A stretch of DNA of 64,000 nt from Vulcanimicrobiota bacterium (GCA_050250895.1 JBFWNU010000001.1:808008-872007); one strand, 5' to 3'; shown: positions 3,242-19,372, counted from the first letter of the stretch. Made by a program: numbers and translations. Notes: generated by a model from the sequence alone, not told the origin.

Positions 3242-3725
3242 CCTCAGCCTCCAAACGCACCAACTCGTCGCCCAAAGCGACCATGACCCCGGCTTCACAG
3301 TTGACCCTGGCGACTGTCCCGGCGCGAGGCGAGGCGATGGTCAACTCCATCTTCATGGACTCCATCACCACCACCACCTGGCCGGCCTCGACTTCCTGGC
3401 CTGGCGTGACTCTAACCTCGAGGATCTTGCCCGGCATCGAGGCCTTCACCAGGTCGCCCCCGCCGGCTCCCAGGGCGCCCTGACTACGCCGAGCCGTGGT
3501 GGTCACCGGTTCGAAGGTATGAACCCGACCGGCCAGCCAGACCCAGACCTGCCGACCGTCGTGATAGACTCGATAGGGCAGGTTGCGACCTTTGAGCACA
3601 GCCACTCCGTCGAGCATGGAAAAGTCGAGAGTGCGTCCCTCGAGGGTGGCCCGGTAACCCTCTTTGGTGGCCTCGAGCACCACCTCTTGCTCGACCTCGT
3701 CGTGGGAATAGCGAAAGCGTTTCAA
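3234..3725 (-). CDS. biotin carboxyl carrier subunit (C-terminal part of a split methylcrotonyl-CoA carboxylase alpha)
   Basis: ASMPGKI...MESMKME biotinylation motif; TTG 3725 with GGAGG RBS overlapping the upstream stop. Confidence 0.88.
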   Translation of the reverse strand: MKRFRYSHDEVEQEVVLEATKEGYRATLEGRTLDFSMLDGVAVLKGRNLPYRVYHDGRQVWVWLAGRVHTFEPVTTTARRSQGALGAGGGDLVKASMPGKILEVRVTPGQEVEAGQVVVVMESMKMELTIASPRAGTVARVNCEAGVMVALGDELVRLEAEDD

Positions 3726-5158
3726 ACGTTCCTCCAGGGACCCATTTCGACCCAGGGGCCGGCGGCTCGTGCGACGGTGGCCGCGTCGGGGCGAGCCTGG
3801 CTCAGTCCGGCCAAGGCGGCAGCCAACAGAGGGGCCGGGCCGGAGGCCGGCATCTGATGCTCGGTCAAGAAGTGAGTGTGGGTGTTGCCGGCCTCGAACT
3901 CGGGATGAGCCAGCACCTCGGCCAGAAACTCGAGATTGGTGGTCACTCCCAACACCACAAAGTGGCGCAGAGCCCAGAGCATCTTTTGCAGAGCCGCCGA
4001 GCGGGTCTCGCCCCACACGATCAACTTGGCCAGCATGGGATCGAAATGGACGGTGACCTGCGAGCCTTGTTCGACACCGCTATCGAGCCGGATACCGGCT
4101 GCCTGGGGTGGCTCGAAGACCCCCAGGGTGCCGATGGACGGCATGAAGTTATTGGCGGGATCCTCGGCGTAGAGGCGACACTCGATGGCCCAGCCGCGCG
4201 GACTCAAGTCTGCTTGGGTAAAGCCCAGGGGCTGGCCGTTGGCCACTTCGAGCTGGAGCCGGACCAGGTCCTTGGCGTAGACCAGCTCGGTGACCGGATG
4301 CTCGACTTGAAGCCGCGTATTTACCTCGAGAAAATAGAAAGAGCCGTCTTCGCCCAGAATGAACTCGACGGTCCCGGCGTTGGTGTAGCCGATGGCCTGG
4401 GCGGCCGCCACCGCCGCCTCGCCCATGCGCTGGCGCAACTCGGGGGTCATGACCGGGCTGGGCGACTCTTCGATGATCTTCTGGTAGCGCCGTTGAATCG
4501 AGCACTCTCGCTCGCCCAGGTGCACCACCTGACCGTGTTCGTCGCCAAAAATCTGAAACTCGACATGGCGCGGTTTTTCGATGTAACGCTCGAGAAAGAC
4601 CCGGTCGTCGCCAAAGGCCTTCAGCGCTTCACCCTGGGCCCGCGAGACCGAGTCGGCCAGCTGCTCGGGGCGGTCGACCCGTCGCATACCCTTGCCGCCC
4701 CCGCCGGCGGCTGCCTTCACCAGCAGAGGAAAGCCCACGCTCTCGGCGCCGGCGGCAACCTCTTCGAGGGGCCCCGACCAGCTCGGCACCACCGGCACGC
4801 CGGCGGCACGCATGGTCTCTTTGGCCACCAGTTTGTCGCCCATGGACTCGATGGCGGACACGGGGGGGCCCACGAATTTGACCCCGGCCTCGGCACAGGC
4901 CCGGGCGAAGTCGGCGTTCTCGGAAAGAAAACCATAGCCGGGATGCAAGGCGTCGATGGAGTGCTCTTTGGTCAGAGCCAGAATCGCCTTCCAGTCGAGA
5001 TAACTATCGATGGGGTAAGCCTCGTCAGCCAGGCGACGATGGAGACTATGAGCGTCGGGAGGAGTGTAGACCGCGCAGGCCGTCAAACCCATCTCTTGCA
5101 AGGTGCGCGTCACGCGCACGGCGATCTCGCCTCGGTTGGCAATCAGCACTCGCTTCAT
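3722..5158 (-). CDS. biotin carboxylase subunit of acyl-CoA (likely 3-methylcrotonyl-CoA) carboxylase
   Basis: MKRVLIANRGEIA, HPGYGFLSEN, GGGGKGM, ERECSIQRR and EVNTRLQVEHPVTE motifs. Confidence 0.95.
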   Translation of the reverse strand: MKRVLIANRGEIAVRVTRTLQEMGLTACAVYTPPDAHSLHRRLADEAYPIDSYLDWKAILALTKEHSIDALHPGYGFLSENADFARACAEAGVKFVGPPVSAIESMGDKLVAKETMRAAGVPVVPSWSGPLEEVAAGAESVGFPLLVKAAAGGGGKGMRRVDRPEQLADSVSRAQGEALKAFGDDRVFLERYIEKPRHVEFQIFGDEHGQVVHLGERECSIQRRYQKIIEESPSPVMTPELRQRMGEAAVAAAQAIGYTNAGTVEFILGEDGSFYFLEVNTRLQVEHPVTELVYAKDLVRLQLEVANGQPLGFTQADLSPRGWAIECRLYAEDPANNFMPSIGTLGVFEPPQAAGIRLDSGVEQGSQVTVHFDPMLAKLIVWGETRSAALQKMLWALRHFVVLGVTTNLEFLAEVLAHPEFEAGNTHTHFLTEHQMPASGPAPLLAAALAGLSQARPDAATVARAAGPWVEMGPWRNV

Positions 5159-5160
5159 GG

Positions 5161-6771
5161 CTACATCCTGAACACGCCGTGCTGGCGCTGCGGGAAGGGT
5201 GCGTTGAGACTGGCCGCGATGCCCAGGGCCAGCACCCTTCGGGTGTCGACGGGATCGATCACGCCGTCGTCCCAGAGGCGGGCGGTGCTGTAGTAGCAAC
5301 TGCCCTCCCGCTCGTACTTGTCCAGAATGGGCTGTTTGAACTCGGCGCTCTGAGCCTCGTCGAGCAAAGGCTTGCCGGTGGCCTCGAGCTGGTCCTGGCG
5401 CACCGTCAACAGCACGTTGGCTGCCTGCTCGCCGCCCATGACGGAAATGCGAGCGTTGGGCCACATCCACAATTGGCGAGGACTATAGGCCCGTCCGCAC
5501 ATCCCATAGTTGCCGGCTCCGTACGAACCACCCAGGATGACGGTGAACTTGGGCACGGCCGCGTTGGCCACCGCCTGCACCATCTTGGCTCCGTCCTTGG
5601 CAATGCCGCCGGCCTCAAAAGCCTTGCCCACCATAAATCCCGTGATGTTCTGAAGAAAGACGAGCGGCACGCCCCGGGCGCTGCACAGCTCGATGAAGTG
5701 GGTAGCCTTGAGGGCCGATTCGGAGAAGAGCACTCCGTTGTTGGCCAGAATGCCCACCGGGTAGCCCCAAATACGCGCAAATCCGGTGACCAGGGTGGTG
5801 CCGTAGAGGGCCTTGAACTCGTGGAACTCGCTAGCGTCGACGAGGCGAGCAATCACCTCGCGCACATCGTAGGCCACCCGGTCATCGGCCGGGATGATGC
5901 CGTAGATCTCCTCGGGATCATAAGCCGGTTCGCGCGCAGACTGAGCATCGATGGGCGTCTGGTGGCTGCGATTGAGGGCAGCCACCACGTTGCGGCAGAT
6001 GGCCAGCGCGTCCTCGTCGTCGTGGGCGTAGTGGTCGGCCACCCCCGATTCTCGACAATGCACGTCGGCCCCGCCCAACTCTTCGGCGGTGACCACCTCG
6101 CCGGTGGCCGCCTTGACCAGCGGCGGCCCCCCCAGAAAGATCGTGCCCTGATGGCGCACGATAATGGTCTCGTCGCTCATGGCCGGAACGTAAGCCCCTC
6201 CGGCCGTACACGAGCCCAGCACGGCGGCGATCTGGGGAATCCCAGCGGCCGACATACGGGCCTGGTTATAGAAGATTCGACCGAAATGCTCCCGGTCGGG
6301 AAAAACCTCGTCCTGGAGCGGTAAGAAAGCCCCCCCCGAGTCGACCAGATAGATGCAGGGCAGGTGATTCTCGGCGGCCACCTCTTGGGCGCGCAGGTGC
6401 TTCTTGACGGTGATGGGGTAATAGGTGCCCCCCTTCACGGTGGCGTCGTTGGCCACGATCACGCACTGGCGGCCCGACACCTGGCCGATCCCGGTCACTA
6501 CCCCCGCGCTGGGGGCCTCGCCATCATACATATCCCAGGCGGCGAGCGCCCCCAACTCCAGGAAGGGAGTGTCGGGGTCGAGCAACTTCTCGATCCGATC
6601 CCTGACGAAAAGCTTGCCGCGTTTGCGGTGACGCTCGACATATTTGGGGCCGCCCCCCTGGCGAACTTGCTCCAACCGGTTCTGCAACGAGGCGGTCCGA
6701 GCCAGCATGGCTTCGCGGTTTTGCGCGAACGCGGCCTCGCCGGGGTGGATGCGGGTGGGTATCTGTTCCAC
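5161..6771 (-). CDS. methylcrotonyl-CoA carboxylase beta (carboxyltransferase) subunit
   Basis: [41 protein letters not shown] and ARLWDDG motifs; GTG 6771 with GGAGGA RBS; operon with hmgL. Confidence 0.93.
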
Positions 6772-6875
6772 GGGGTCCTCCTGGGAGCCGTCGCATTCTT
6801 TGGTCAAGCTTGAATCCCTCTTGAAGGTTCCTTAGCCAGGCTTACAGAAGTTCACACGACAGGGAGGATTGCGCC

Positions 6876-8144
6876 GTGCAACTTAAGCATCGACTAGCCG
6901 CGACCCTATTTTTCGCGGTAGCCGTAATGGCCAGCCTGACGCACCAGCAGCTGGTCGACAAACAATCTCACTATATCCCCATCGATTATCGTCCCTTGCT
7001 GACGCAAGAGCAGCATTGCCGCACCCAGGAGAGTACCTACCTGGCCGTGCTGGACCACATTCAGAATCATTCGGTCAAAAGAATTTCTAACCGCGCCCTG
7101 GAAGCCTCGGTTCGGGCCGAGCTGGCCGAGCTGACCCGTCAGGCCGGGCTATCTCCGGTTCGCTTGACGGGCGAACTCAATCAGTTGCCGACCGAACTGC
7201 TCGAGGCCTACGGCGACCTTCCCGAGAACGCCGTCTTCTATGCCGGCGCCCAGGGTCTGGTGCGGGCTGTGGATCATCCCGAGGCCGAGCTGGTTGGCAT
7301 GCAGAACGACACCTACTATGGCAACCTCGGCCAGAGCGGAATTGGCGCCATCATCGGTCCCACCCGCGGGGCCCGCGGCATCCTGCTACAGACGGTTCTT
7401 CCCGGTGGTGCGGCCGACCAGGCCGGCTTGACCGGTGGCGACCTGCTGCTCGAGATCGACGACCGGGATTGCTCGGACATGTCGATGCCGATGGCCGTCG
7501 CCCTGTTGCGCGGCGAGGCCGGCCAACCGGTGAGCCTGCTGGTTCGCCGCGGCGACGGACTGCGGACCCAAGAGTGGACCGTACGCCTGGTCCGCCAGCC
7601 CCTCGACATCGACACCACCGTGGTCAGCCAAATTGACGGTGAAATGGCCAAGGTCCGCCTGCTGTGGCTTGACTCGCGCACGGCCATCCAGCTTGGGGAC
7701 ACCCTCGACGGTCTGGCCGCCCTGGGCGTGAAACAGGTCGAGCTCGACCTGACCCAAACCGCCTCCGGTAGCCTCAGCGACGTGGCCGCCATCGGCAGCC
7801 TCTTCCTTCCCGAGGGCACCAACGTGGGCGGCACCCGCACGGTCGATATGACCGCCAACTACTCGACTTATCCCAGCACGCGTCACTACGACTTCGACCT
7901 GACCGTGCTGGTCGGCCCCAATACCCGTGGCTCGGCTGAAGCCCTGGCCCAGGTATTGACCAGCCGCGGCCCGGCCCGCCTGACCGGGCAGCCCACCGCT
8001 GGCGACGGCCTGATTCCGACCTACTACTGCGAAGGCGTTAAACTGCCTGGTCGTAGCATCATCCTCAGCGACGGGACCGAGCTGGAAGGCCACGGCCTCA
8101 ACCCGCCCGTGCGCAACCTGAGCGACGCTTTCGGTCGACTGTAA
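6876..8144 (+). CDS. PDZ-containing S41/CtpA-like protein, catalytic residues apparently lost
   Basis: N-terminal signal/TM; SGIGA...PGGAADQAGL..GD.LLEID PDZ domain; degenerate S41 motifs DLTQTASG, TRGSAE, GQPTAGDG. Confidence 0.8.
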   Translation: MQLKHRLAATLFFAVAVMASLTHQQLVDKQSHYIPIDYRPLLTQEQHCRTQESTYLAVLDHIQNHSVKRISNRALEASVRAELAELTRQAGLSPVRLTGELNQLPTELLEAYGDLPENAVFYAGAQGLVRAVDHPEAELVGMQNDTYYGNLGQSGIGAIIGPTRGARGILLQTVLPGGAADQAGLTGGDLLLEIDDRDCSDMSMPMAVALLRGEAGQPVSLLVRRGDGLRTQEWTVRLVRQPLDIDTTVVSQIDGEMAKVRLLWLDSRTAIQLGDTLDGLAALGVKQVELDLTQTASGSLSDVAAIGSLFLPEGTNVGGTRTVDMTANYSTYPSTRHYDFDLTVLVGPNTRGSAEALAQVLTSRGPARLTGQPTAGDGLIPTYYCEGVKLPGRSIILSDGTELEGHGLNPPVRNLSDAFGRL

Positions 8145-8276: not shown

Positions 8277-9401
8277 TTACCGCAGATTGACCGGGCCGAT
8301 GTGCTTGTAGTGGTCTTTGCCGCGGAAGCTGAAGGCTCGCAGCGGCTGGTTGGAGAGGCTCCTAGCCAGGTTGTCGGCGGTGGTCTCGCCCGCCTCTTTG
8401 GCCGAGTGTTTGTCGGCCGGCACGGGTTGGCCGCCGCTGCGGGCCAGCGCCGCGTCGCCGATCACGAAGACCTCGGGATGATCGGGCAGAGTCAGATGGT
8501 CGGTCACCTCCACCCGTCCGCCACGGGTGGTGGGACCGAGGCGTTGGAGGACCTCGGGTGACTCCGTGCCTACGGCCAGCATAATGGCGGAAGCTGAAAG
8601 CACCTCACCTGAGGTCAGTGTTACCTGACCTTCGGCCACGTCGGCAAGGCGCTCACCAAGACGCAGAGTCACTCCTTTCTCGAGCAAGGCCGCGGTAGCC
8701 CGGCGGCTCACATCGTCGGGCATCCCTTGGCACAGTCGGGGTTGGCTGTGGATTAGGGTAAGATTGAGATCTTTGGACAGACTGGGATCGACCTGCTCGA
8801 CCAGGTCGGCCACGATGCCGGCCAGTTCGACGCCGGTGGCTCCCCCACCGACCACCACGAACTGCAGTTGCTGGGCGCGGCGGCCAGGGTCGGTCTCGGC
8901 CAGAGCGGCCATCGCCTGGGTGCGAACCGTTTCGCGAATCTTCTGAGTGTCTTCAGGCTGGTCGAGGGTCAGCACGTGCTCGGCCCACTCGGGATGGCCC
9001 AACAGAGCCGGTCGCGAGCCCAGGGCTACCACCAGGTAGTCGTAAGAAATGCGCTGGCCGCGGTCAAGGACTACCTGGCGAGTGGCCACATCGATGTCGG
9101 TGACCTCGCCCAATCGCAGCTGGCCGCCGGCCTTTCCCACGACTTTGGCTAGCGACTGCTGGGCTTCAGAAGTCTCTTTCCCGCCCACCGTCACCTTCCA
9201 GAGCTTGGTCTTGTAGGTCTGAGCGGGCTTGCGGTCGACCAGGGTCAGGTGGACGGGCGCCTTGAGCGACTCGACGAACTCGACGCCGGCGTAGCCGCCT
9301 CCCAGCACCACCACCTTGGGACTGTCCTGACCGGGGGCTGGCCGCCGCTTGTGGTGGCCGGCCCGAAGGGTGGGGCTGAAGTTAGAAAGACGAGTGAGCA
9401 T
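8277..9401 (-). CDS. NDH-2/AIF-like FAD/NAD(P)H oxidoreductase with N-terminal extension
   Basis: VVVLGGGYAG, YDYLVVALGS, GGGATGVELAG and VFVIGD motifs; ATG 9401 with AGGAGG RBS. Confidence 0.88.
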   Translation of the reverse strand: MLTRLSNFSPTLRAGHHKRRPAPGQDSPKVVVLGGGYAGVEFVESLKAPVHLTLVDRKPAQTYKTKLWKVTVGGKETSEAQQSLAKVVGKAGGQLRLGEVTDIDVATRQVVLDRGQRISYDYLVVALGSRPALLGHPEWAEHVLTLDQPEDTQKIRETVRTQAMAALAETDPGRRAQQLQFVVVGGGATGVELAGIVADLVEQVDPSLSKDLNLTLIHSQPRLCQGMPDDVSRRATAALLEKGVTLRLGERLADVAEGQVTLTSGEVLSASAIMLAVGTESPEVLQRLGPTTRGGRVEVTDHLTLPDHPEVFVIGDAALARSGGQPVPADKHSAKEAGETTADNLARSLSNQPLRAFSFRGKDHYKHIGPVNLR

Positions 9402-9475: not shown

Positions 9476-11692
9476 TCAGGAGCCGACGATGCTTTTGTAA
9501 AGACGGGTGGTCTCGGCGCTGGGAGCCATGAACAGCTCTTCTTGCAAAGCTTCCTGGCAGCTCCAGTAGAGGCGCGCCACCCGCTCGGGTTGATCCGACC
9601 AGGCCCGCATCAAGACCTGGTAGGCTCCCTGATGGCAGCGGTCGAGCGAGAGCAGTTGTTCGCCCAGCGAGAGGCAACGTTCCCGCTGACCCAAGCGCTC
9701 ATGATGGTCCATCAAAAGCTCGAGGGCCCGGGTGGCCTGATCGCGAAACTGGCTGCGGTAGGGCAACACCCAGCTGTCCTCGACCGTTTCTAGCAGGTCT
9801 CCCTGATAGAGCGACACGGCCCGCTCGAGGGCCTCGACAGCCGCCTCCGTCTTGCCGTTCTGCCAGGCCTCGAAGCCACTGGTGACGGTCTGACCAAAGT
9901 CGAGGAAATCGGCTTTACAGGTGAAGTCCTGATTCCAGCGGCAGCAACCGCGCTGGTGCAGCACCGGGTCCGGCCCTTTACCGTCTGGAGACTTCAAGGC
10001 GCGGCGAATGTAGGTCAGGGCCGAATACAGGTTACCCTGGGCTCGGTCGCCCTCGAGCTCTTCCCAGAACAGGTCCGTGAGGCGTTCGTCAGGCACCTCG
10101 TTGCCGTTATGCAAGACCAGGATCAAAAAGAGCGAGCGACTCTTGTTGGTCTTCCAGTCCTTGTTGGTCAACTCGCGACCGTGGGCTCGCATGGTCAAGG
10201 GCCCGAAGGCCTCGAGTTCGAGGGTGGCGCCGGCTGCCCCCTCGGACCGGGGCGCGAAGCGAGCCGTCCAGGAACGGTCGCTCTCGGCCAGAGCATAGAC
10301 GGCCTGACTCAACCAGCGCTCGCGCGTGAGCACCCAGTGCAAGCCGGTCGCCTCCACCTCTTGCTCGAGTCGAGCCACCGCCTCTTGCAGCTGGCGCGGC
10401 GGGGGTCGCAAGCTTTCACCCCAGGCCTTGAGCAACAAAGCCCGCACCCGCCCGCGATTGGAGCCACTGCCGGCATAGATGGTCAGCGCTTCCTCCAATT
10501 GTTGGGCGGCCTGAGGGCGGCCCAGAGCCACTCCCAGAGCGGCTGACGTGGCCAGGGCGTCGGCTCGCTGCAGACTGCCGCGCGCCCGCTCGAGGGCCTG
10601 ACCGGCCAACTCATACCCGACCTCGGGCTGCTCGCAGGCGGCCTCAGCCAGGGCCAGCCCCAACAAAGCTTCGCACCCGGCCTGACCCTCCAGGCGCCGC
10701 AGCGCCTCGCGAGCGAGATCGGGCCGTCCGCCGTGCAGATAACCCAGGCCAAGCCCGAGCAGACGGCGACCGCCGGCCGGTTGCGAGGGCAACTCCTCGC
10801 GATTGCCGCTAAGCGTTCTCTCGAGTTCGTCGAGCACCTCGGCCGGGCCACTCCAATTGGAACGAAGCACCTCCAGGCACTCCTGGCGAGAAAGGCCAAC
10901 GGCGGCATCGCCGGGATGAGCCAGGGCATCGTAGCGCGAGACCACCGCCAGGATGGCCGATTCAGGACTCGAGACCGAGGCGCGGGCGCAGTTGATGCCG
11001 CCGCCCATCCACTCGATTACCGAGCTGTCCTGCCAGGCCTGACGCAAAGTGGGCTCTTGTTCGGCCAGCTTGCGACACAAACTGGCTCCAGAATCGAGCT
11101 CGTCGGGATGGCCGACGCTTTGCAAGATGGCTCCCAGCCCGACTCGCTCGGAGACATCGCCGGGCAGGTCCAGGGCGCGGGCCAACTGTCCCGCCAGGCT
11201 TCGCTGACGCAAAGCCCGGTCGCGGACCTGGGGGGTGGTGGCGCAGACCTCGGTCAACAGCCACTGGCTCAGTTGGCGAGCATCCTCAAAGCCTCGCTGC
11301 ATGCAACGATGCCACCAGACCTGCCGGTCCAACCATTCGAAAGCTCGCCGGATCGAGCGCAAGAAAGTGAGGTCGTCAAAAGGCTTGGTCAGAAAATCGT
11401 CGACCTGCAACCGAAAGGCTTCGACCGGGGCTTCAAAATCGGCAAAGCCGGTGATGACCACGGCCCGCGTCTCGGGAGAACTCTGGCGCAGGTGTCCCAG
11501 CATGGTCATGCCGCTCATGCCGGGCATCTTGACGTCGGTGACCACCAGGTCGAAGTGACGTTCCGCCGTCTTCTCGAGGGCCTCTTCGGCCGAGGTGGCG
11601 GTGGCCACCTCATAGCTCTCTTCTTCGAGCAGACAGGCCAGGCTGTCGAGCAGCAAGGTGTCGTCCTCAACCAACAAAATCGTTCTGGTCAC
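9476..11692 (-). CDS. response regulator: REC + degenerate HD-GYP + TPR + SARP-type wHTH/BTAD
   Basis: REC intact (VEDD, TDVKMP, TG, TKP). HD-GYP remnant GAILQSVG...AILAVVSRYDAL. C-terminal FGPL...WKT.KSRSLF..L..H...LFW...NLYSALTYIRRAL and LY.GDLL...W...LD...E/Q.AY..LMRA typical of SARP/BTAD. Confidence 0.85.
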   Translation of the reverse strand: MTRTILLVEDDTLLLDSLACLLEEESYEVATATSAEEALEKTAERHFDLVVTDVKMPGMSGMTMLGHLRQSSPETRAVVITGFADFEAPVEAFRLQVDDFLTKPFDDLTFLRSIRRAFEWLDRQVWWHRCMQRGFEDARQLSQWLLTEVCATTPQVRDRALRQRSLAGQLARALDLPGDVSERVGLGAILQSVGHPDELDSGASLCRKLAEQEPTLRQAWQDSSVIEWMGGGINCARASVSSPESAILAVVSRYDALAHPGDAAVGLSRQECLEVLRSNWSGPAEVLDELERTLSGNREELPSQPAGGRRLLGLGLGYLHGGRPDLAREALRRLEGQAGCEALLGLALAEAACEQPEVGYELAGQALERARGSLQRADALATSAALGVALGRPQAAQQLEEALTIYAGSGSNRGRVRALLLKAWGESLRPPPRQLQEAVARLEQEVEATGLHWVLTRERWLSQAVYALAESDRSWTARFAPRSEGAAGATLELEAFGPLTMRAHGRELTNKDWKTNKSRSLFLILVLHNGNEVPDERLTDLFWEELEGDRAQGNLYSALTYIRRALKSPDGKGPDPVLHQRGCCRWNQDFTCKADFLDFGQTVTSGFEAWQNGKTEAAVEALERAVSLYQGDLLETVEDSWVLPYRSQFRDQATRALELLMDHHERLGQRERCLSLGEQLLSLDRCHQGAYQVLMRAWSDQPERVARLYWSCQEALQEELFMAPSAETTRLYKSIVGS

Positions 11693-11705
11693 GGGCGGCG
11701 GTTCC

Positions 11706-13682
11706 TCATTTTCTTACCGGGTCCTCCACCAACTGGTGTCGCCCGTTTCGGATCTCGAGCAGATAGACGGGTAGCTCGGCCGGCATCTTGCCAGGGCTGA
11801 GATAGCCCGAGGCGCCGATGTAAGCCGGTTGCGTCGAGCCCAGGGCTCGAAGATTATGGCGGATCTGGTCGCGTGAGTGGCCCAGCCACGGCTCGAGCAG
11901 AGTGACTCCGTCATAGCCTTGAGCGGCGGCGCGAGTTGGCTCGACCCCAGGAAACTGGCCTTGAAACTCCTCTACGAAAGCCTTCACCGGAGCAGCCTGG
12001 GACTCGGGAAAGAAAGTCTCGGCCAGGCGCAAACCGTCGAGGGCGTCGCCCCCCGCCTCGAGCAGCCCGGCGCTGTATCCCACCACGTTGGAATAGAGTT
12101 CGGCCTGGGAACCCGAACGACGCAGCTGACGGGCGAACTCGCCCAAATAGCTGCCCGGAGCGGCTACAAAAAAGATAGCCTGCGCCCCTTTGAGTTCGTC
12201 CACCAGGGCCGAAAAGTCGCGGGTCGAGGTTGGGTAGGTGCGCTCGACCACGGTGGTCTCGCCGAGATTGCCTTTGACCACGAAGGCCAGATCGCGAGCC
12301 ATGGCCTGCTGATCATCGTAGAGTAGCCACACTTCCGAAAAATGGCGTTGGGCCAACTGGCGGGCCAGCGGCACCACCCTGGCCGGAAAGGGTGCACCCA
12401 GGGTGAAAAGGCTATCGCTTTGCCAGGCTTTGGGATGGGTCGCGCCCAAGGAAACCACCGGCAACTGTCGCCGGGCGGCCAAGAGCTCTACCGCCAGGGT
12501 GCGTTCCGAGTTGGTGGGGCCCAGCAAACAGCGAATCTTGGGGTCGGCTCCCAGGCGGTCCACCCAGCCCATGCTCTGGGCAATGGTGCTCTGGTCGTCG
12601 CATACCTGCAACCGCAGCGGCCGCCCCTGCTGCTGAACGCGTCGCTGAGCCAGAGCGGCGCCCTGAAGAAAGTTGCGAGCCTGGCGCCACTCTGGTCCGG
12701 TCAAGGGCACCACGATGGGTAGCACGGGTGATTCTGGCTGACCCAGGTTCTGGGCGGTGATGAGGGCCAAACCGTCGTCGGGCTCGGCCTGCTGCCAGCT
12801 TTGAGCCAGTTGTCGGGCCAAAGTCTCGTCGCCCTGCAGCAAGGCCTGGTCGATTCGAGCCAGAAACGGCGATACGCCGGGCTCGGTCGGACCCACCGGC
12901 AGCAGGCCCAGCACCAGGCAAACCAGGGAGCAAAGGCACAACAGCGTGGCCGTCCACAACGACCGGGCCGGAATCAGCGCCGCCGGCCGTCCCAGTTGAG
13001 CCAACCACTCGAGCAGCTCGGCACCGCTCTGGGGACGCTGGTCCGGATCGTGATGGGTCCACTTGTGCAGTAGCTCGGCGAAGGGCGAGCGGGCCGGTCC
13101 GATCATCGCCTCGAACAGCTTGCCAAGCGAGTAGATGTCGCTGCGGGCATCACACCGATGGTCGCTCTCCGGGGCCAGATAGCGCGCCACCCCGCCCGCG
13201 GCCGGACCGGGCGACTGGAGGGCCAGCCCGAGATCGACCACCCGCACGCTCCCACCGTCGTCGAGCAGCAGATTCGCCGGATTGAGGTCGACCAGATAGA
13301 CCGAGTGCTGATGGAGATAGTCGAGCAGCCGAGCCACCTCATAGACCACCGTCAAGGCCCGGGCCACAGGCAACGGCGCCTTTTCCAGCCGAGCCGCCAG
13401 GGTCTGGCCGCTGATAGCGTCCATGACTAGAGCGGGGCGACCTTCGTGTTCGAGGCGGTCCACCAGGGTCGGAAGAGCTCGATGCTGCAGTCGGGCCAGC
13501 AGTTGGGCCTCGGTGGCAAACAGCTGCTCGAGACGCACGCCAGGCACTCTGGGTTCGGCCAGTTTCACGGCCCAGCGCGTGCCCGGCAGGCGCAGGTCTT
13601 CGCACAACAGAACCTGGCTGGTGCCCCCCTGGGCCAACACCGCCGCCACTTTGTAGCGACCGCTGAGGACCTGCCCTATCAC
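11706..13682 (-). CDS. membrane Ser/Thr kinase fused to a type-1 (LivJ-like) periplasmic binding domain
   Basis: QGGTSQV, WAVK, DLNPAN, DLG, YLAPE and SDIYSLG kinase motifs; one TM; VPLTG...LGPTNS...AAQGYDG binding-protein pattern. Confidence 0.85.
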   Translation of the reverse strand: MIGQVLSGRYKVAAVLAQGGTSQVLLCEDLRLPGTRWAVKLAEPRVPGVRLEQLFATEAQLLARLQHRALPTLVDRLEHEGRPALVMDAISGQTLAARLEKAPLPVARALTVVYEVARLLDYLHQHSVYLVDLNPANLLLDDGGSVRVVDLGLALQSPGPAAGGVARYLAPESDHRCDARSDIYSLGKLFEAMIGPARSPFAELLHKWTHHDPDQRPQSGAELLEWLAQLGRPAALIPARSLWTATLLCLCSLVCLVLGLLPVGPTEPGVSPFLARIDQALLQGDETLARQLAQSWQQAEPDDGLALITAQNLGQPESPVLPIVVPLTGPEWRQARNFLQGAALAQRRVQQQGRPLRLQVCDDQSTIAQSMGWVDRLGADPKIRCLLGPTNSERTLAVELLAARRQLPVVSLGATHPKAWQSDSLFTLGAPFPARVVPLARQLAQRHFSEVWLLYDDQQAMARDLAFVVKGNLGETTVVERTYPTSTRDFSALVDELKGAQAIFFVAAPGSYLGEFARQLRRSGSQAELYSNVVGYSAGLLEAGGDALDGLRLAETFFPESQAAPVKAFVEEFQGQFPGVEPTRAAAQGYDGVTLLEPWLGHSRDQIRHNLRALGSTQPAYIGASGYLSPGKMPAELPVYLLEIRNGRHQLVEDPVRK

Positions 13683-14695
13683 GGGGCGAACCGGGCCGGC
13701 AAGATCAGATCGGCCCCTTCAGAATGACAACTGAGTCGCCCGCCAGCGGTGGCCACCGCATCCTGCAGCTGCTCAGAAATGTCGCCACCACCCTGCAGTC
13801 TGACCCAGACCTCGTCGGCCTTTTCCTGGGTGGTCACCGACACCTTGCCCATCATCAACTGACCCAACAGATGCCCCAGTCCGGCCGGATCGGCGATAAT
13901 GGTGTGGGTGAGTTGGCCGGGCCTCCAATCGATGCTCAGCCCCGAAGCCTGGACGGCCGCCTCGACCAGTTGATTGATATCGACCGGGACCCGTACCAAC
14001 TGGCTGAAGGTCACGTCCCGCTCGACCATATCGTAAGGTCGGCGGGCAAAGAGCATGAGTTTCTCGATGACCGTCTGGCAACGCTCGACCGAACGCTTGA
14101 TCAGATCGACCCGACGGGCCACGGCAGGGTCTTCACCCCGACCCAGGCGCGTAGCATTGGTCAGGATGGTGGCCAGCGGCGTGTTGAGTTCATGGGCCAC
14201 TCCCGCAGCCATCTTGCCCAGGGCCACAAATCCACGCCGGTCCTCGTCACCAAGGCCCGAAGCCCGATGGCGCAAGCTCTCGAATAACGGCAACACGGGC
14301 CGGCAATCGGCCGCCAGGGCGGCCGCCGAGCCAGCCTCACCCGTCCAGACCAGGGCCAGCCCAGGACTCAGCCGGAGGCCCTGACTCGAGCCCTCGTCAA
14401 AAAGCTGCGCGGCCGCGGCGCGGCAGTTCTCGAGCTGCCCGGACACCGGCTCCCAACTGCACAACAGGGTGGGTTCGGGACCCGAGAAAAGAAAGAGAGA
14501 CTCTAACCGGTGGTGCCGCCCCAGGATAGCCAGCACCTGGCTGCCGGCCTCGGTCACCTGGGTGGTCGAAGTGGCCGCCTGGGCCAGCTCCTCCCACAGC
14601 CGCGAGCGGCGGCTGGCCCGCACGAGCAGGGCCAGACTCAAGCAAGAAGAGATGGTTGCACCAAGGGCGGCCACGGCCAGCAGAGTGGTATTCAC
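13679..14695 (-). CDS. membrane histidine-kinase-like protein with intact HisKA and degenerate HATPase
   Basis: N-terminal TM; AAGVAHELNTPL H-box; no N-box Asn, no DxGxG, no GxGLGL. Confidence 0.8.
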   Translation of the reverse strand: MNTTLLAVAALGATISSCLSLALLVRASRRSRLWEELAQAATSTTQVTEAGSQVLAILGRHHRLESLFLFSGPEPTLLCSWEPVSGQLENCRAAAAQLFDEGSSQGLRLSPGLALVWTGEAGSAAALAADCRPVLPLFESLRHRASGLGDEDRRGFVALGKMAAGVAHELNTPLATILTNATRLGRGEDPAVARRVDLIKRSVERCQTVIEKLMLFARRPYDMVERDVTFSQLVRVPVDINQLVEAAVQASGLSIDWRPGQLTHTIIADPAGLGHLLGQLMMGKVSVTTQEKADEVWVRLQGGGDISEQLQDAVATAGGRLSCHSEGADLILPARFAP

Positions 14696-15819
14696 TGCGT
14701 CGGCGGATGAAACCCCAGGTGAAGGGCGCTGCGCACCAGCTTCGTGCCGAGTTCGGTCCGGGCCTCGAAGTCAAGACTAAGAGGCAACTCGAATAGCAGG
14801 GATACGCCAGCGCCGCCTTTGCCGGCTTCTTGCACCAGGGTCCCATCGTAGCGATAGGGCACCAGGCGAAAGTCATGCTCGCGCAGGACCGGCTCGAAGG
14901 CCTTCAGAAAGGCAAGGCTCTGCGGGGTGGGGTGGAAAATGCACAGACGGCCGGCCCGCCCCTGGTCCCATTCGGCCAGCCCCTCGTGCAAGTCGATCGC
15001 CAGGCCTGCCTGCTGAGCGGCACTACAGATCTCGGCCGCCCGTTGCTGCTCGGGAGTACCGTTAGGGTCGCCCGGAAAGATGCGGTTCATATCGACCGAT
15101 TGCCCGTCCTCACCGAGGTTGCGACGGCTAATCATCATGCCGGCCCAGGGATTGCCGTTGGAGAAAGTGCGCACCCGAGACTCGGGATGCTCGTCGTGGA
15201 TGGTCCCTGCCACGGCCATGCCGGAGAGTTCGTTGCCATGGACGCCTCCCACCACGACCGCCTTGCGCACCCGCTCTACCCCGTCGCTCGGGCGCATGTC
15301 TAGCCAGTCGCAGACCTGGTCGACGTTGGCGAAAACCATGTGCTGGGCCAGCAGTTGTGGATGCTCGTGCTTGAGCTGGCCAAAAACCTCGCGGGTGGCG
15401 GCGGGGTCGTCGGCCAGCCGAGCGCGCAGGGCCTCGACTTCACGAGGCAAGGTGCCGGCGTTGCGACGGTGAACCTCGAGCCGGTGCAGCAACCCGTCGC
15501 GAACCCGGTCGCTCATTCCATGGCCGGCCGTTCCCTTGAGCACCGCGTGACAGTCCTCGAAGAGCAGGATAGGCCGCCGACTCACTTTTGGCGGCTCCTG
15601 CCAATCCAGGGTTTTCGGAGCCGCCGCGAGCTGGCAAGTGGGGCCTTTGGGCACCGCCGGCGGCGGGGGCTCGGTGGGTGACGGTTTGGCGGCCGGGGCT
15701 GCCCCTAGCTCGCATTGGTCGAGGGGAAGGGGGGCCTCGTCGGTGGCGGGAGCCACAGTGAAGGCTCGATGGGGCGGAACAAACGCTTCCCGACGACCGA
15801 CGATCCCCTGCAACTCCAT
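14692..15819 (-). CDS. M14-type (succinylglutamate desuccinylase/aspartoacylase-like) zinc hydrolase with Pro-rich N-terminal extension
   Basis: GGVHGNE, DMNRIFPG and IDLHE motifs in the C-terminal half. Confidence 0.8.
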   Translation of the reverse strand: MELQGIVGRREAFVPPHRAFTVAPATDEAPLPLDQCELGAAPAAKPSPTEPPPPAVPKGPTCQLAAAPKTLDWQEPPKVSRRPILLFEDCHAVLKGTAGHGMSDRVRDGLLHRLEVHRRNAGTLPREVEALRARLADDPAATREVFGQLKHEHPQLLAQHMVFANVDQVCDWLDMRPSDGVERVRKAVVVGGVHGNELSGMAVAGTIHDEHPESRVRTFSNGNPWAGMMISRRNLGEDGQSVDMNRIFPGDPNGTPEQQRAAEICSAAQQAGLAIDLHEGLAEWDQGRAGRLCIFHPTPQSLAFLKAFEPVLREHDFRLVPYRYDGTLVQEAGKGGAGVSLLFELPLSLDFEARTELGTKLVRSALHLGFHPPTQ

Positions 15820-15860
15820 AGCATGGTTATGCCACCCCTATAAGGTCGTGTCAAGCTCAC

Positions 15861-15888
15861 AAAAAAAAGGGTTCCGCATAGCGGAACC
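15861..15888 (-). terminator. intrinsic terminator of the predicted sRNA
   Basis: GGTTCCGC-TAT-GCGGAACC-C-TTTTTTTT. Confidence 0.88.
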
Positions 15889-15964: not shown

Positions 15965-15996
15965 AAAGAAAAAAGGGCCCCGTGTTACCGGGGCCC
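15965..15996 (-). terminator. intrinsic terminator of 16021-16314
   Basis: GGGCCCCG-GTAACA-CGGGGCCC-TTTTTTCTTT. Confidence 0.88.
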
Positions 15997-16715: not shown

Positions 16716-17903
16716 CTAGCCTACTCGACGAGGCTTTTCGTGGATCGTGCCCGGCCTGCTAGCGGGAGGCTCAGGGGCCACGACTTTGGCGTAGACCGAG
16801 ACCAGCGCAAAACGCATCCGCTCTTTCCAGCAGCGGGTCAGCGGCTCGTCGCGGGTGACGTGAAAATAGGTATGGACAATCTTCTTGAGCACGCTCGACT
16901 CCATCATGTTTCCCCGCACGCGGCCGGTCTCGCGGTTGGCAGCCTCGACCGAGAAACGGTAGCGGTGCCCGGCAAACTCTTTGTTGGCGCGCACTGCCCG
17001 GTCATAGACCTGATCGATCAGATTCTTGGGCTTACCGCACTCGATGCGGGTTCCCAGACAGATCTCGGTCTCTTCCATGACGGCCCCGATGGGCACATAG
17101 TCGCCCACGCAGTTGAGTACTTCCAAAGCGGGCAGGCGGCTCTGATCGCGGTTGGTCAACGCCATGAAGTCGCGCAGCCCCTGATCGATGGGTAAGAGGT
17201 TAAGCTGAGCCGTCGGGTCGAGGTCCATGCGCACGGCATTGACCCCGGCCTTGTTGAGCTTGCGATAGCTCTCGAGAAACATATACAGCCCGAACGTACT
17301 GCCCTCGTAAGCGCCGGTCTTGGAATGGCCCACGCAGATGCTGGGGCGGATGATGCTCAGGGCGATATGGCTGCCGGCGGCCTCTTGAGCCAGCGACAGC
17401 TCGGTCATGCTCTTGGACATCTGATAGCCGTTGAGGAAATGGTCAGGCACTACCAGGTTCTCGGGCACCGGTCCCCGGTGCAAACCAGCCGAATAGGCTG
17501 TGGAAACGTAGTGAAACCGTCGACAATTGGGAGCATGGCGCTTGAGCACCCGCAGCAAGCCTACCGACCCGGCCACGTTGGTGATCATGCTATTGAAACT
17601 ACGCTTGCGTGAATACGACATCTCGGCTGCGCAGTGCCACACCATATCGACCTGATCAAGTCCCTTGGGCGGCAGCTGTCCCGGTTCAGCGCCCAATTCC
17701 CAGTGAGCGGCCTCAAGACGCGAACGCTCTTCGGGGGTCAAAGCCCAGCCCACGGCCACCGAGGCCTGCTCCACCGCCCGACGGATCTTGTCCGGGCCAC
17801 TTCGACCCAGACAAAGCACGCGATGGCCCTCCCTGAGCAGATTAGCCGCCAGAGCACTTCCTAAAAAGCCCGTGGCACCGGTCAATAAGATCGTCGAAGC
17901 CAT
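16716..17903 (-). CDS. extended SDR / fatty acyl-CoA (thioester) reductase-like protein
   Basis: LLTGATGFLG, WHCAA, YVSTAY, YQMSK and IRPSICVG motifs; ATG 17903. Confidence 0.85.
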   Translation of the reverse strand: MASTILLTGATGFLGSALAANLLREGHRVLCLGRSGPDKIRRAVEQASVAVGWALTPEERSRLEAAHWELGAEPGQLPPKGLDQVDMVWHCAAEMSYSRKRSFNSMITNVAGSVGLLRVLKRHAPNCRRFHYVSTAYSAGLHRGPVPENLVVPDHFLNGYQMSKSMTELSLAQEAAGSHIALSIIRPSICVGHSKTGAYEGSTFGLYMFLESYRKLNKAGVNAVRMDLDPTAQLNLLPIDQGLRDFMALTNRDQSRLPALEVLNCVGDYVPIGAVMEETEICLGTRIECGKPKNLIDQVYDRAVRANKEFAGHRYRFSVEAANRETGRVRGNMMESSVLKKIVHTYFHVTRDEPLTRCWKERMRFALVSVYAKVVAPEPPASRPGTIHEKPRRVG

Positions 17904-18010
17904 TTCAGTCCCCTTCCAAGTTCCGCCGCAGATACCACGAAGGGGGTGACAATTCCTCCGTCTGGAGACGGTCAACAGGAACCAATCCTGACAAGCAGAA
18001 GGGGTGTTCG

Positions 18011-19372
18011 GTGTTCCGCCACAGCTCGCACCAGTTACTCGACAACCCACCCGCCCTCCACTATGGCGCTGCAGCCGTGGATATCGACGGTGATGGCCTT
18101 TTCGAAGTGGTAGTCGCCGGCTTTCTCGGACCCAATCGGGTGCTCAAATGGAACGGGAAGGGTTTTGTCGATGTCGCCGAGTCGATGCTGGCAGACGTCA
18201 AACGCAAGACCATCGGGGTAGCCGGCTGCGATCTCGACGGCGATGGTCGTGAGGAGATCTATTTCCTCAACACCGACACCTTCGCCGGTCCCAAGCGTCA
18301 CTCGGATACCCTGCTAAAACACACTCCCGACGGTTGGATCGACCTGTTTCACCTCGACCAGAACGTCGAATTCGCCAATCTTACGGCCGGACGTTCAGTG
18401 GCCGTGCTCGACCGGCAGGGCAACGGTCGCTATGGATTCGTGGTGGCCAACTACGCCGGCCCTTTGGCTCTATTCGAGGCCGACACCGAGGGCCGAGTGC
18501 GGGATGTGGCTCCTCAGGCCCGGATCGACCGGGTCACGGGTGGGCGCGGCCTGGTCTGCGCCCCGCTTTTCGAGAGCCCCCTGCCCGACCTTTTCTGCAA
18601 CAACGAGAACGGCCCCAACTTTCTCTTCCGCAATTTGGGGGACGGCCGCTTCGACGAGGTGGCCGCGCTCTGCGGCGTGGCCGATGCCGGCCTGAACGGG
18701 CGCGGCGTGGCCGTGCTCGATGCCCGCCGAGATCGAAGACTGGACCTGGTTTGCGCCAACTGGGAAGGACCGGCCCGGCTCTATCGCCAGCGCGAGCGCG
18801 GACGCTACGAGGAGGCCACTCCGCCGGCCCTGGACCGCCCCGGGCCGACCCGAACCGTAGTGGTGGCGGACTTCGACCATGATGGCCACGAAGAGATCTT
18901 CTTCAACAACCTCAGCGCGCCTAACCGGCTCTTTGGCTGGCGTCAGGGGGGCTGGGTGGAACTCGATGTGGGCGAAGCGGCCGAGGCCGGTGCCTGGGGA
19001 ACGGGAGCGGTGGTCGGAGACTTCGACCAGGATGGTCGACTCGAGCTGTTGATCTGTCACGGCGAAGAGAAGATGGAGAGCCTGAGCCTGTTTCGCCCCG
19101 AGTCGGTGGGGCACCACCTGCGCGTCATGCCGCTGACCACGGCCGGCGCTCCGGCCCGCGGGGCCCGGGTGATCATCCGGGCCGGCGACCGCGAGCAGGT
19201 GCGAATCATCGATGGGGGAAGCGGGTATCTCTGTCAGATGGAACCCGTTGCCCATTTCGGGCTAGGCCCGCTGACCGAAGTCGAAGAGGTCGAGATTCGC
19301 TGGCCAGACGGCGCCGAAGTGAAGCTGGGCCGCCAATCGGCCGAGCAGACACTGAAAGTGAGACATCCGTGA
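18011..19372 (+). CDS. CRTAC1/ASPIC-UnbV family FG-GAP repeat protein
   Basis: Repeated D.DGDG motifs; C-terminal GGSGYLCQ..PVAHFGLG...V.IRWPDG. Confidence 0.9.
   Translation: MFRHSSHQLLDNPPALHYGAAAVDIDGDGLFEVVVAGFLGPNRVLKWNGKGFVDVAESMLADVKRKTIGVAGCDLDGDGREEIYFLNTDTFAGPKRHSDTLLKHTPDGWIDLFHLDQNVEFANLTAGRSVAVLDRQGNGRYGFVVANYAGPLALFEADTEGRVRDVAPQARIDRVTGGRGLVCAPLFESPLPDLFCNNENGPNFLFRNLGDGRFDEVAALCGVADAGLNGRGVAVLDARRDRRLDLVCANWEGPARLYRQRERGRYEEATPPALDRPGPTRTVVVADFDHDGHEEIFFNNLSAPNRLFGWRQGGWVELDVGEAAEAGAWGTGAVVGDFDQDGRLELLICHGEEKMESLSLFRPESVGHHLRVMPLTTAGAPARGARVIIRAGDREQVRIIDGGSGYLCQMEPVAHFGLGPLTEVEEVEIRWPDGAEVKLGRQSAEQTLKVRHP

Follow-up and report, generated by a model that had tools for sequence, protein, structure and literature searches.

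A hybrid signalling operon of four genes occupies positions 9476-15819, on the minus strand, of the window, the whole 64,000-nucleotide (nt) stretch of Vulcanimicrobiota DNA analysed here (GCA_050250895.1 JBFWNU010000001.1:808008-872007). The host is an uncultured soil-type bacterium. The initial annotation had described the region as a hybrid operon of partly degenerate modules, and a maintained operon of this kind is supported by defects shared among orthologues, by synteny, and by the ratios of nonsynonymous to synonymous substitution rates (dN/dS). The reading that we favour, at a probability of about one half, is that the product of the second gene, a HisKA protein deprived of its ATPase domain, may serve as a dedicated transmitter phosphatase or phosphoryl shuttle for the co-encoded SARP regulator, while a Hanks-type kinase fused to a periplasmic-binding-protein (PBP) domain would provide the ligand input. 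The four genes, in the order of transcription, are the following.

14692..15819, minus strand: P0001, AstE/AspA-like zinc hydrolase, 375 amino acids (open reading frame and Pfam)
13679..14695, minus strand: P0002, putatively membrane-anchored HisKA protein without a working ATPase domain, 338 amino acids (open reading frame, Pfam and alignment)
11706..13682, minus strand: P0003, fusion of a Hanks-type kinase, a transmembrane segment and a type-I PBP domain, 658 amino acids (open reading frame and Pfam)
9476..11692, minus strand: P0004, response regulator composed of REC, degenerate HD-GYP, TPR-like and SARP regions, 738 amino acids

These open reading frames (ORFs) are tightly packed and fill the interval. 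Stop and start codons overlap by 4 nt each in GTGA at 14692/14695 and 13679/13682, and a 13-nt gap with GAGGA lies ahead of the regulator gene; the common orientation, both overlaps and the gap, all pointed out in the initial annotation, can be read directly from the sequence.

Pfam detects HisKA alone in P0002 (E 7.4e-13, residues 159-219), and a HATPase family match at E<=1 was obtained for none of the four HisKA-family members scanned, the window's included. The protein is laid out as an N-terminal hydrophobic helix, a small alpha/beta domain (residues 47-145), the DHp region (residues 152-218) and a stub of the CA domain. The last two are placed as follows.

14039..14221, minus strand: DHp/HisKA domain, residues 159-219, with H168 and HELNT (HExxT) (Pfam and alignment)
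13682..14029, minus strand: CA (HATPase) remnant, residues 223-338, without the N-box Asn and the G1, F and G2 boxes (hhalign)

The H box, HELNTPL, spans residues 168-174. The ortholog alignments used here have five rows, the window's and four from sister-family genomes, the latter being close kin. H168, E169 and P173 are invariant in all five, and position 172 is either Thr or Ser, the window copy reading HELNT and the four sister-family orthologues HELNS. All five proteins are without the N-box Asn and the G boxes. Profile-profile alignment (hhalign) of the HisKA family with seven full-length paralogous kinases (probability 99.8%, E 1.5e-28) lays the stub on the CA domain, with an 11-residue gap in place of NARDA of the N box, a 22-residue gap in place of the F/G2 (lid) segment, and DNGPG opposite a non-matching stretch. 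Pfam and the alignment to the full-length paralogues together confirm the earlier statement that the H box is kept while the N, G1, F and G2 boxes are gone. In a census of the host genome (G000; 9.5 Mb, 17 contigs) made with home-made hidden Markov models (HMMs) on ORFs of at least 200 amino acids at E<=1e-3, P0002 is the only one of 50 ORFs with a DHp hit that has no CA hit. Judged on its sequence as a class I histidine kinase, P0002 retains the DHp domain with the H-box histidine and lacks the ATP-binding CA domain; because the ATP-binding residues have been lost, it is predicted to be unable to phosphorylate itself. Pfam finds no receiver domain in the protein. The N-terminal hydrophobic helix is followed by basic residues, which suggests a membrane anchor with a cytoplasmic body, an arrangement that would fit a reliance on the kinase-PBP protein for information from outside.

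Two kinds of known protein resemble P0002 in part. In RetS of Pseudomonas aeruginosa, a transmitter phosphatase and inhibitor (PMC5992135), the HisKA domain keeps HExxT for transmitter phosphatase activity, the degenerate HATPase domain is without G boxes, and autophosphorylation does not take place. RetS, a large hybrid protein, also has a periplasmic sensor and two receivers and acts on the kinase GacS, whereas the 338-residue P0002 has no receiver, shows a deeper deletion that removes the N box and the ATP lid, and is encoded together with a regulator of its own. ChpT of Caulobacter, as portrayed in PMC3433190, joins a DHp domain to a Bergerat-fold domain without ATP lid, binds no ATP, does not autophosphorylate and shuttles phosphate; with Spo0B of Bacillus, likewise a dimeric histidine phosphotransferase, it shares with P0002 the combination of a four-helix-bundle DHp carrying a phospho-histidine and a lid-less, Bergerat-like C-terminal domain. 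ChpT and Spo0B are soluble, have no recognisable HisKA and take their phosphate from a receiver ahead of them in a multi-step relay, in contrast to P0002, which is probably anchored in the membrane, has a clear HisKA match and shows no upstream receiver in sight. A role as phosphatase, phosphotransferase or scaffold fits the kept H-E-x-x-T/S motif and these precedents.

The predicted structure of P0002 contains helix-strand elements at residues 273-333. Foldseek relates this model to generic sensor kinases with TM-scores of 0.15-0.28, which do not discriminate among RetS-, ChpT- and EnvZ-like states. A full relay of the ChpT/Spo0B kind, in which the HisKA protein would accept phosphate from the receiver of a hybrid kinase encoded elsewhere and hand it to the SARP regulator, appears very unlikely to us. 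The logic of P0002 is ChpT-like in that a DHp histidine, invariant as H168, is joined to a lid-less CA-like domain and autophosphorylation is not expected, and two ORFs that flank REC-SARP genes in the genome combine kinase-domain and receiver hits. However, a second receiver in or beside the operon is found in none of the six loci described below, the HisKA protein descends from an ordinary kinase in a one-to-one pair with its regulator, and the structural matches listed include no ChpT or Spo0B.

The same four genes in the same order (hereafter the cassette) are present in five of five other loci, four from sister-family genomes (L020-L023) and one from a metagenome (L142), which makes six with the window. 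These loci are 37-54% identical to the window, and the junctions are tight in the four sister-family loci. L142 has 93% DNA identity to L020; it came from a metagenome scan with the hydrolase alignment in which two true cassette loci were among the best 80, the other (L143) being the DNA of L021 (99.99%), so that only L142 is new. In L022, an extra 569-residue ORF with a weak PQQ_2 beta-propeller match (4665-6374) lies between the kinase and regulator genes. Close homologues carry the source labels Candidatus Eremiobacteraeota and Candidatus Xenobia. A full-length HisKA orthologue was found in 5 of the 301 genomes searched in the phylum, namely the window's own and four of the five genomes of one sister-family genus, and in none of the other 15 genomes of the window's family. 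In the protein database, the HisKA protein family has 4 full-length members including the window's own (8000 candidates scored), the regulator family 9, and the kinase-PBP family 5 in addition to more distant kinase-PBP fusions. A search of genome contigs with the HisKA alignment returned, as its best 80 loci, partial matches to ordinary kinases through the H box (best E 3e-12); no HisKA orthologue is among the matches listed, which says nothing on distribution.

These loci bear directly on decay, that is, on the view that the cluster is a non-functional remnant of a duplicated module. Several catalytic motifs are indeed lost, the operon is distributed sporadically (5 of 301 genomes), and the branch leading to the cassette kinases is long. 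Nevertheless, the reading frames are open, the losses are common to loci that are 37-54% identical to the window, and gene order and coupling are kept in all six. No orthologue with intact HATPase or kinase motifs was found, the five aligned copies sharing both the missing boxes and the atypical kinase loop, and the conserved linkage for which a synteny search had been proposed holds for the four genes in six of six loci, the window counted. By the Nei-Gojobori method, dN/dS is below 1 in 12 of 12 domains for all five pairs of sister-family orthologues, pairs that are not mutually independent; comparisons of the window with the sister family were left out, their synonymous sites being judged too diverged. 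The values are 0.05-0.16 for DHp, 0.18-0.48 for the CA stub, 0.13-0.37 for the kinase, 0.18-0.32 for the PBP domain, 0-0.17 for the receiver and 0.09-0.35 for the HD-GYP remnant. Because the losses are common to diverged loci, gene order is kept and dN/dS is below 1, decay is rejected as having next to no likelihood, and the operon is, on this sequence evidence, real and maintained by purifying selection.

The same genome also contains an intact counterpart of three of the cassette genes. Within it, the HisKA protein, the kinase-PBP protein and the regulator each find their best match at a single locus on contig C6 (L052, 466-6502), where Pfam describes the following genes.

Contig C6: histidine kinase of 446 amino acids with HisKA and HATPase_c (E 1.8e-26)
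Contig C6: kinase-PBP protein of 707 amino acids with full Pkinase and Peripla_BP_6, adjoining the histidine kinase on the same strand
Contig C6: regulator of 837 amino acids with REC, HD_5 (E 4e-36), TPR and BTAD, divergently oriented

By blastp, the regulator matches its C6 paralogue over its full length (29% over 842 columns, E 4e-80), as does the kinase-PBP protein (27% over 712 columns, E 8e-60), and the match of the HisKA protein to the C6 kinase is confined to DHp (42% over 103 columns, E 3e-23). The C6 kinase-PBP protein has the loop FRDLKPDN and a DFG motif. The intact module also occurs in relatives from three or four families and is nearly universal in the order, and intact-type kinase matches are present in two of the four sister-family genomes that have the cassette (G018 and G020). 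The HisKA, kinase-PBP and regulator genes of the cassette are, by these sequence relations, diverged paralogues of the intact module of the lineage. A maximum-likelihood tree groups the five cassette kinases in a single clade (support 100/100) whose stem is long, at 1.37 substitutions per site; the clade arises from an unresolved group (an open polytomy) of the lineage's intact kinase-PBP proteins, with the parental lineage unresolved.

The census places the cassette within an expanded family. The genome contains 24 REC+SARP ORFs of 612-1060 amino acids, among which HD-GYP is full in 2, a short remnant in 3 and not detectable in 19, the window's included. Loss of HD-GYP is therefore not special to the cassette, being common across the family. 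A DHp+CA ORF lies within 6 kb of 22 of the 23 other REC-SARP ORFs, and a kinase-PBP gene neighbours a REC-SARP gene in the window and at the C6 locus only. What sets the cassette apart is the loss of the ATPase, the altered kinase and the added hydrolase. Two more kinase-PBP fusions are encoded at C1:793891-796110 (743 amino acids, ~12 kb before the window start) and C2:379180-381213 (695 amino acids); no histidine kinase or SARP regulator was found beside either.

The coexistence of intact and trimmed versions raises the question of whether the trimmed proteins act chiefly on the intact module. The HisKA protein would then bind its full-length kinase paralogue, or drain it, on the model of RetS and GacS; the trimmed and canonical kinase-PBP proteins would pair, and at SARP sites the regulator would be a competitor that does not hydrolyse cyclic di-GMP (c-di-GMP). 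The presence of the intact module in the same genome, the intact-type kinase matches in two of the four cassette-bearing sister-family genomes, the 42% identity of the DHp domains and the RetS precedent are consistent with such a shadow or decoy function, and the RetS-GacS complex (7n0e) is among the Foldseek matches. Co-occurrence weighs little, however, because almost every member of the order has the intact module. The cassette also has a complete DHp-REC pair of its own with a conserved receiver pocket, and the positions of DHp helix 1 that we take to be specificity-determining differ consistently, A/T..T-N/E..R in the cassette against G-A..T-M..S in the paralogues, which suggests insulation rather than cross-talk. 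We regard the decoy function as unlikely.

In P0003, Pfam finds Pkinase (E 1.8e-21, 77.2 bits against a cut-off of 31.7) at residues 10-194, covering profile positions 1-191 of 263, and Peripla_BP_6 (E 4.4e-33) at residues 323-645, covering profile positions 6-339 of 343. The elements of the protein are listed below.

12978..13682, minus strand: kinase domain, residues 1-235, with a short activation loop and the alphaG region deleted (Pfam and motif alignment)
13272-13295, minus strand: catalytic loop LVDLNPAN, residues 130-137 (sequence)
12888..12956, minus strand: predicted membrane-spanning segment, residues 243-265, hydrophobic run LWTATLLCLCSLVCLVLGLLPVG (read by eye)
11748..12716, minus strand: Peripla_BP_6 (LivJ/AmiC-type) ligand-binding domain, residues 323-645 (Pfam)

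The atypical loop and the ligand domain described in the initial annotation are both present, and the PBP domain is placed beyond the membrane segment. The five cassette kinases have an LVD/LGD-L-N/S-P-x-N loop and a DLG motif. K40 (the beta3 Lys), E58 (the alphaC Glu), D132 (the catalytic Asp), N137 and D150 (the DLG Asp) are invariant in all five, as is the APE motif, whereas the RD Arg and the catalytic-loop Lys are lost in all five and kept in 6 of 6 relatives compared. A pseudokinase is missing at least one of the beta3 Lys, the catalytic Asp and the DFG Asp; since all three are kept in every cassette kinase, the kinase of P0003 is not a pseudokinase by its sequence. Set beside a Hanks-type kinase, it has the K/E/D/N/D set and lacks the HRD Arg, the loop Lys and a full C-lobe. 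The earlier description of a degenerate kinase holds for the atypical loop, but the domain is less degenerate than implied. RIO- and Bud32-type kinases function without a catalytic-loop lysine, and activity of the P0003 kinase may therefore be possible.

An active, PBP-gated Hanks kinase would permit a different logic, in which it phosphorylates the regulator, the HisKA protein or both on Ser/Thr, replacing the lost histidine-kinase ATPase as the energy-dependent input, and DHp only tunes the receiver. The invariant K40, E58, D132, N137, D150 and APE motif, together with the Pkinase score of 77 bits against 31.7, speak for this scheme, and the genes for the kinase and the HisKA protein, which share 4 nt in the window, are also neighbours in the intact module. 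AfsK/AfsR of Streptomyces and PknH/EmbR of Mycobacterium are precedents for Hanks kinases that control SARP regulators, and among solved structures EmbR alone is related to the output domain of P0004. These pairs resemble the cassette in that a membrane Hanks kinase with an extracytoplasmic sensor is tied to a SARP regulator. AfsR and EmbR have no receiver, EmbR having FHA and AfsR an NB-ARC ATPase, and the loops of their kinases are canonical; in the window, by contrast, the SARP region is C-terminal behind REC, the HD-GYP remnant and TPR, a DHp partner is encoded, and the kinase loop is without Arg and Lys. The scheme has further to contend with the loss of these two residues in 5 of 5 cassette kinases against their retention in 6 of 6 relatives, the shortened activation loop, the deletion of the alphaG docking region, the long stem of 1.37 substitutions per site, and a regulator in which no FHA or other phospho-Thr reader is found. 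We give it only a minor share of the probability and consider it improbable.

A far more speculative arrangement, which we would hardly expect to hold, is a chimeric split histidine kinase, in which the PBP-gated Hanks domain would have become the ATP-binding, phosphoryl-donating module for the DHp histidine. Were this long shot correct, an extracytoplasmic ligand would drive His-Asp signalling to the SARP regulator by way of a eukaryotic-like kinase fold. Complementary, co-conserved losses in two overlapping genes are what such a chimera would lead one to expect. Structure prediction of a complex between the kinase (residues 1-235) and the HisKA protein (residues 27-338), made with the five-row alignments, gave a score of 0.00 against a mark of 0.32 and is evidence neither way.

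The regulator P0004 combines an intact input with a remodelled middle. Pfam reports Response_reg (E 6.6e-27) and BTAD (PF03704; E 2.2e-16, 61 bits against a cut-off of 22.1); Trans_reg_C (E 0.0035, 17.8 bits) stays below its cut-off of 26.2, HD_5 is faint (E 0.08), and the TPR matches are weak (E 0.057-0.43). The regions of the protein are as follows.

11363..11680, minus strand: receiver, residues 5-110, with D10, D11, D53, T81 and K103 (Pfam)
10763..11320, minus strand: HD-GYP remnant, predicted to be catalytically dead, residues 125-310 (hhalign)
10208..10762, minus strand: TPR-like helical region, residues 311-495 (weak Pfam matches and homology to the TPR region of the intact paralogue)
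9479..10207, minus strand: SARP output (putative winged helix, and BTAD), residues 496-738 (BTAD and EmbR match)

The Pfam match and the pocket residues D10, D11, D53, T81 and K103, invariant in all five orthologues, bear out the intact receiver of the initial annotation. The degenerate HD-GYP domain is likewise substantiated: aligned by hhalign with nine genuine HD-GYP domains from this genome (probability 90.3%, E 1.5e-6, 129 columns), the middle of P0004 shows other residues at the HD dyad and no HHE..DGxGYP stretch, the motifs being absent in 5 of 5 orthologues. P0004 is not among the 27 HD_5 matches of the genome. A profile of the middle region searched against PDB sequences gave two chance-level matches (E 1.3 and 2) and no HD-GYP structure, and in a search with the whole protein receiver domains dominate, which makes it uninformative for the remainder. 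With neither the HD dyad nor the HHE..GYP segment left, hydrolysis of c-di-GMP would not be expected. Proposed TPR repeats stand by full-length homology to a paralogue with clear TPRs, although the Pfam matches themselves are weak. The match between the output domain and its solved relative, EmbR (2fez), has E 0.0018 and pairs query residues 2-153 with EmbR residues 17-165. Like RpfG-type REC-HD-GYP proteins, P0004 starts with REC followed by the HD-GYP fold, and its intact paralogue has a full HD_5; unlike them, the window copy is without the HD dyad and the HHE..GYP segment and continues into TPR-SARP. In the literature on HD-GYP with SARP or BTAD, no description of the REC/HD-GYP/TPR/SARP architecture was found by title or abstract.

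Taken together, gene structure, domain losses, paralogy, synteny and purifying selection are the established part of the account, and from them we infer every biochemical step of the transmitter phosphatase or phosphoryl shuttle. The DHp domain of P0002 would dephosphorylate the receiver of the regulator, or swap phosphate with it, in the manner of RetS or ChpT, and P0002 would in this way set the duration of regulator phosphorylation. The phosphoryl group would come from outside the operon, from a paralogous kinase or acetyl phosphate. The PBP-kinase would carry an extracytoplasmic ligand signal and modulate the step between P0002 and the regulator; because the RD Arg, the loop Lys, part of the activation loop and alphaG are lost, its kinase domain, which keeps the catalytic Asp and the residues that bind nucleotide and Mg, would probably signal through binding, or through phosphorylation that is weak or altered. 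The HD-GYP remnant would act as a structural linker and the output would be DNA binding by the SARP domain. The AstE-like hydrolase would be an extra enzyme of the cytoplasm, its zinc site intact and its gene coupled in translation to that of the HisKA protein.

Several observations count against this account. The phosphatase-motif residue is Ser in the four sister-family orthologues, the usual residue being Thr or Asn. The P0002 model is of moderate quality (predicted local distance difference test, pLDDT, 64), residues 218-270 falling below 50, and ChpT and Spo0B are not among the Foldseek matches listed for it. The account names no specific phosphodonor for the receiver, and the P0003 kinase keeps every residue normally used to call kinases active, which is why it may be the real phosphoryl source. 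The operon is rare, as the figure of 5 in 301 genomes indicates, and the account assigns no role to the hydrolase.

The hydrolase P0001 matches AstE_AspA_cat (PF24827; E 4.4e-11, 43.1 bits against a cut-off of 25), and Peptidase_M14 (PF00246) gives no match at E<=1, weak M14/M99 matches being confined to more distant relatives. The initial assignment as an M14 hydrolase was imprecise, the family matched being AstE/AspA. The motifs HGNE, DMNR and DLHE are invariant in all five orthologues, with H194, E197, N245, R246 and H278 invariant. Profile matches in the PDB include 3cdx (1.3e-8), DoeB, MpaA and aspartoacylase, and the alignment of 3cdx and 2qj8 to P0001 displays the zinc and substrate motifs. 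The AlphaFold2 model (pLDDT 70) has its top Foldseek matches in 3cdx, DoeB and Csd4; disorder is predicted for residues 1-80, a helical domain spans 87-175 and the catalytic domain 185-370. A search of 1.84 billion representatives with the P0001 profile returned 1495 matches at E<=1e-3 and 5 at E<=1e-30, and a protein-atlas look-up again gave AstE/AspA (scores 0.87-0.88, below 0.9). No paralogue was found in the own genome. P0001 resembles the AstE/aspartoacylase/DoeB zinc deacylases (PF24827; 3cdx, 6twm, 2gu2) in the catalytic fold and the HxxE...NR...H motif set; it differs in its extra N-terminal helical domain, in that the C-terminal AstE_AspA domain is not reported by Pfam, and in its place in a signalling rather than a catabolic operon. 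The sister-family hydrolases have an N-terminal domain of ~110 amino acids that matches the C-terminus of a PQQ beta-propeller protein (P0195) and is missing in the window's hydrolase. The idea that the enzyme generates or removes the ligand of the PBP domain finds no support, as P0001 has neither a signal peptide nor a hydrophobic N-terminus, whereas the PBP domain is placed beyond the membrane segment.

Upstream of the hydrolase gene, the following signals were noted.

15826..15854, minus strand: promoter-like TTGACA-17 nt-CATAAC (sequence reading; weak inference)
15870..15888, minus strand: terminator-like hairpin with a T8 run and 8 stem pairs, closing the upstream gene (hairpin scan)
15975-15996: second terminator-like hairpin, 8 stem pairs (hairpin scan)

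A consensus promoter scan gave 0 promoter-like sites; because TTGACA-17-CATAAC did not pass it, the call at 15826..15854 is a weak lead. The -10-like hexamer CATAAC ends 6 nt ahead of the ATG of the hydrolase gene and no Shine-Dalgarno sequence is visible before this ATG (15819-15860, minus strand), for which reason the gene may be translated from a leaderless transcript. The GC content of the region (0.64-0.66) is inside the range across the window.

Downstream, a gene for a Pyr_redox_2 flavoprotein (8277-9400, minus strand, E 1.2e-40) begins ~75 nt past the regulator stop behind AGGAGG, and no terminator-like site was found between the two genes. The neighbours at 3722-6807 (minus), 6876-8144 (plus), 16716-18050 (minus) and 18011-19372 (plus) are ordinary genes; the neighbouring products comprise biotin carboxylase and carboxyltransferase, a PDZ-S41 peptidase, an NAD_binding_4 reductase-like protein and an FG-GAP/ASPIC protein. 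No matches to the flanking genes of the window are found in three of the four sister-family loci, and therefore no regulatory target can be inferred from them. The fourth, L023, has a biotin-carboxylase match and a Pyr_redox_2 homologue (54% identity) beside the cassette, the latter on the opposite side and the opposite strand.

The operon brings together a pseudo-histidine kinase, a SARP-coupled Hanks kinase and a dead HD-GYP domain, each of a known kind. Its parent module unites His-Asp phosphotransfer, a Ser/Thr kinase, c-di-GMP hydrolysis and SARP control of transcription. Pseudo-kinases and dead second-messenger enzymes are usually studied singly. Here one genome holds a whole pathway as an intact version and a trimmed, selection-kept version, a natural matched pair that lets one ask what roles signalling proteins have after catalysis is lost. 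SARPs commonly activate natural-product gene clusters; if this link is true here, the ligand of the PBP domain could serve to elicit products from an uncultured lineage.

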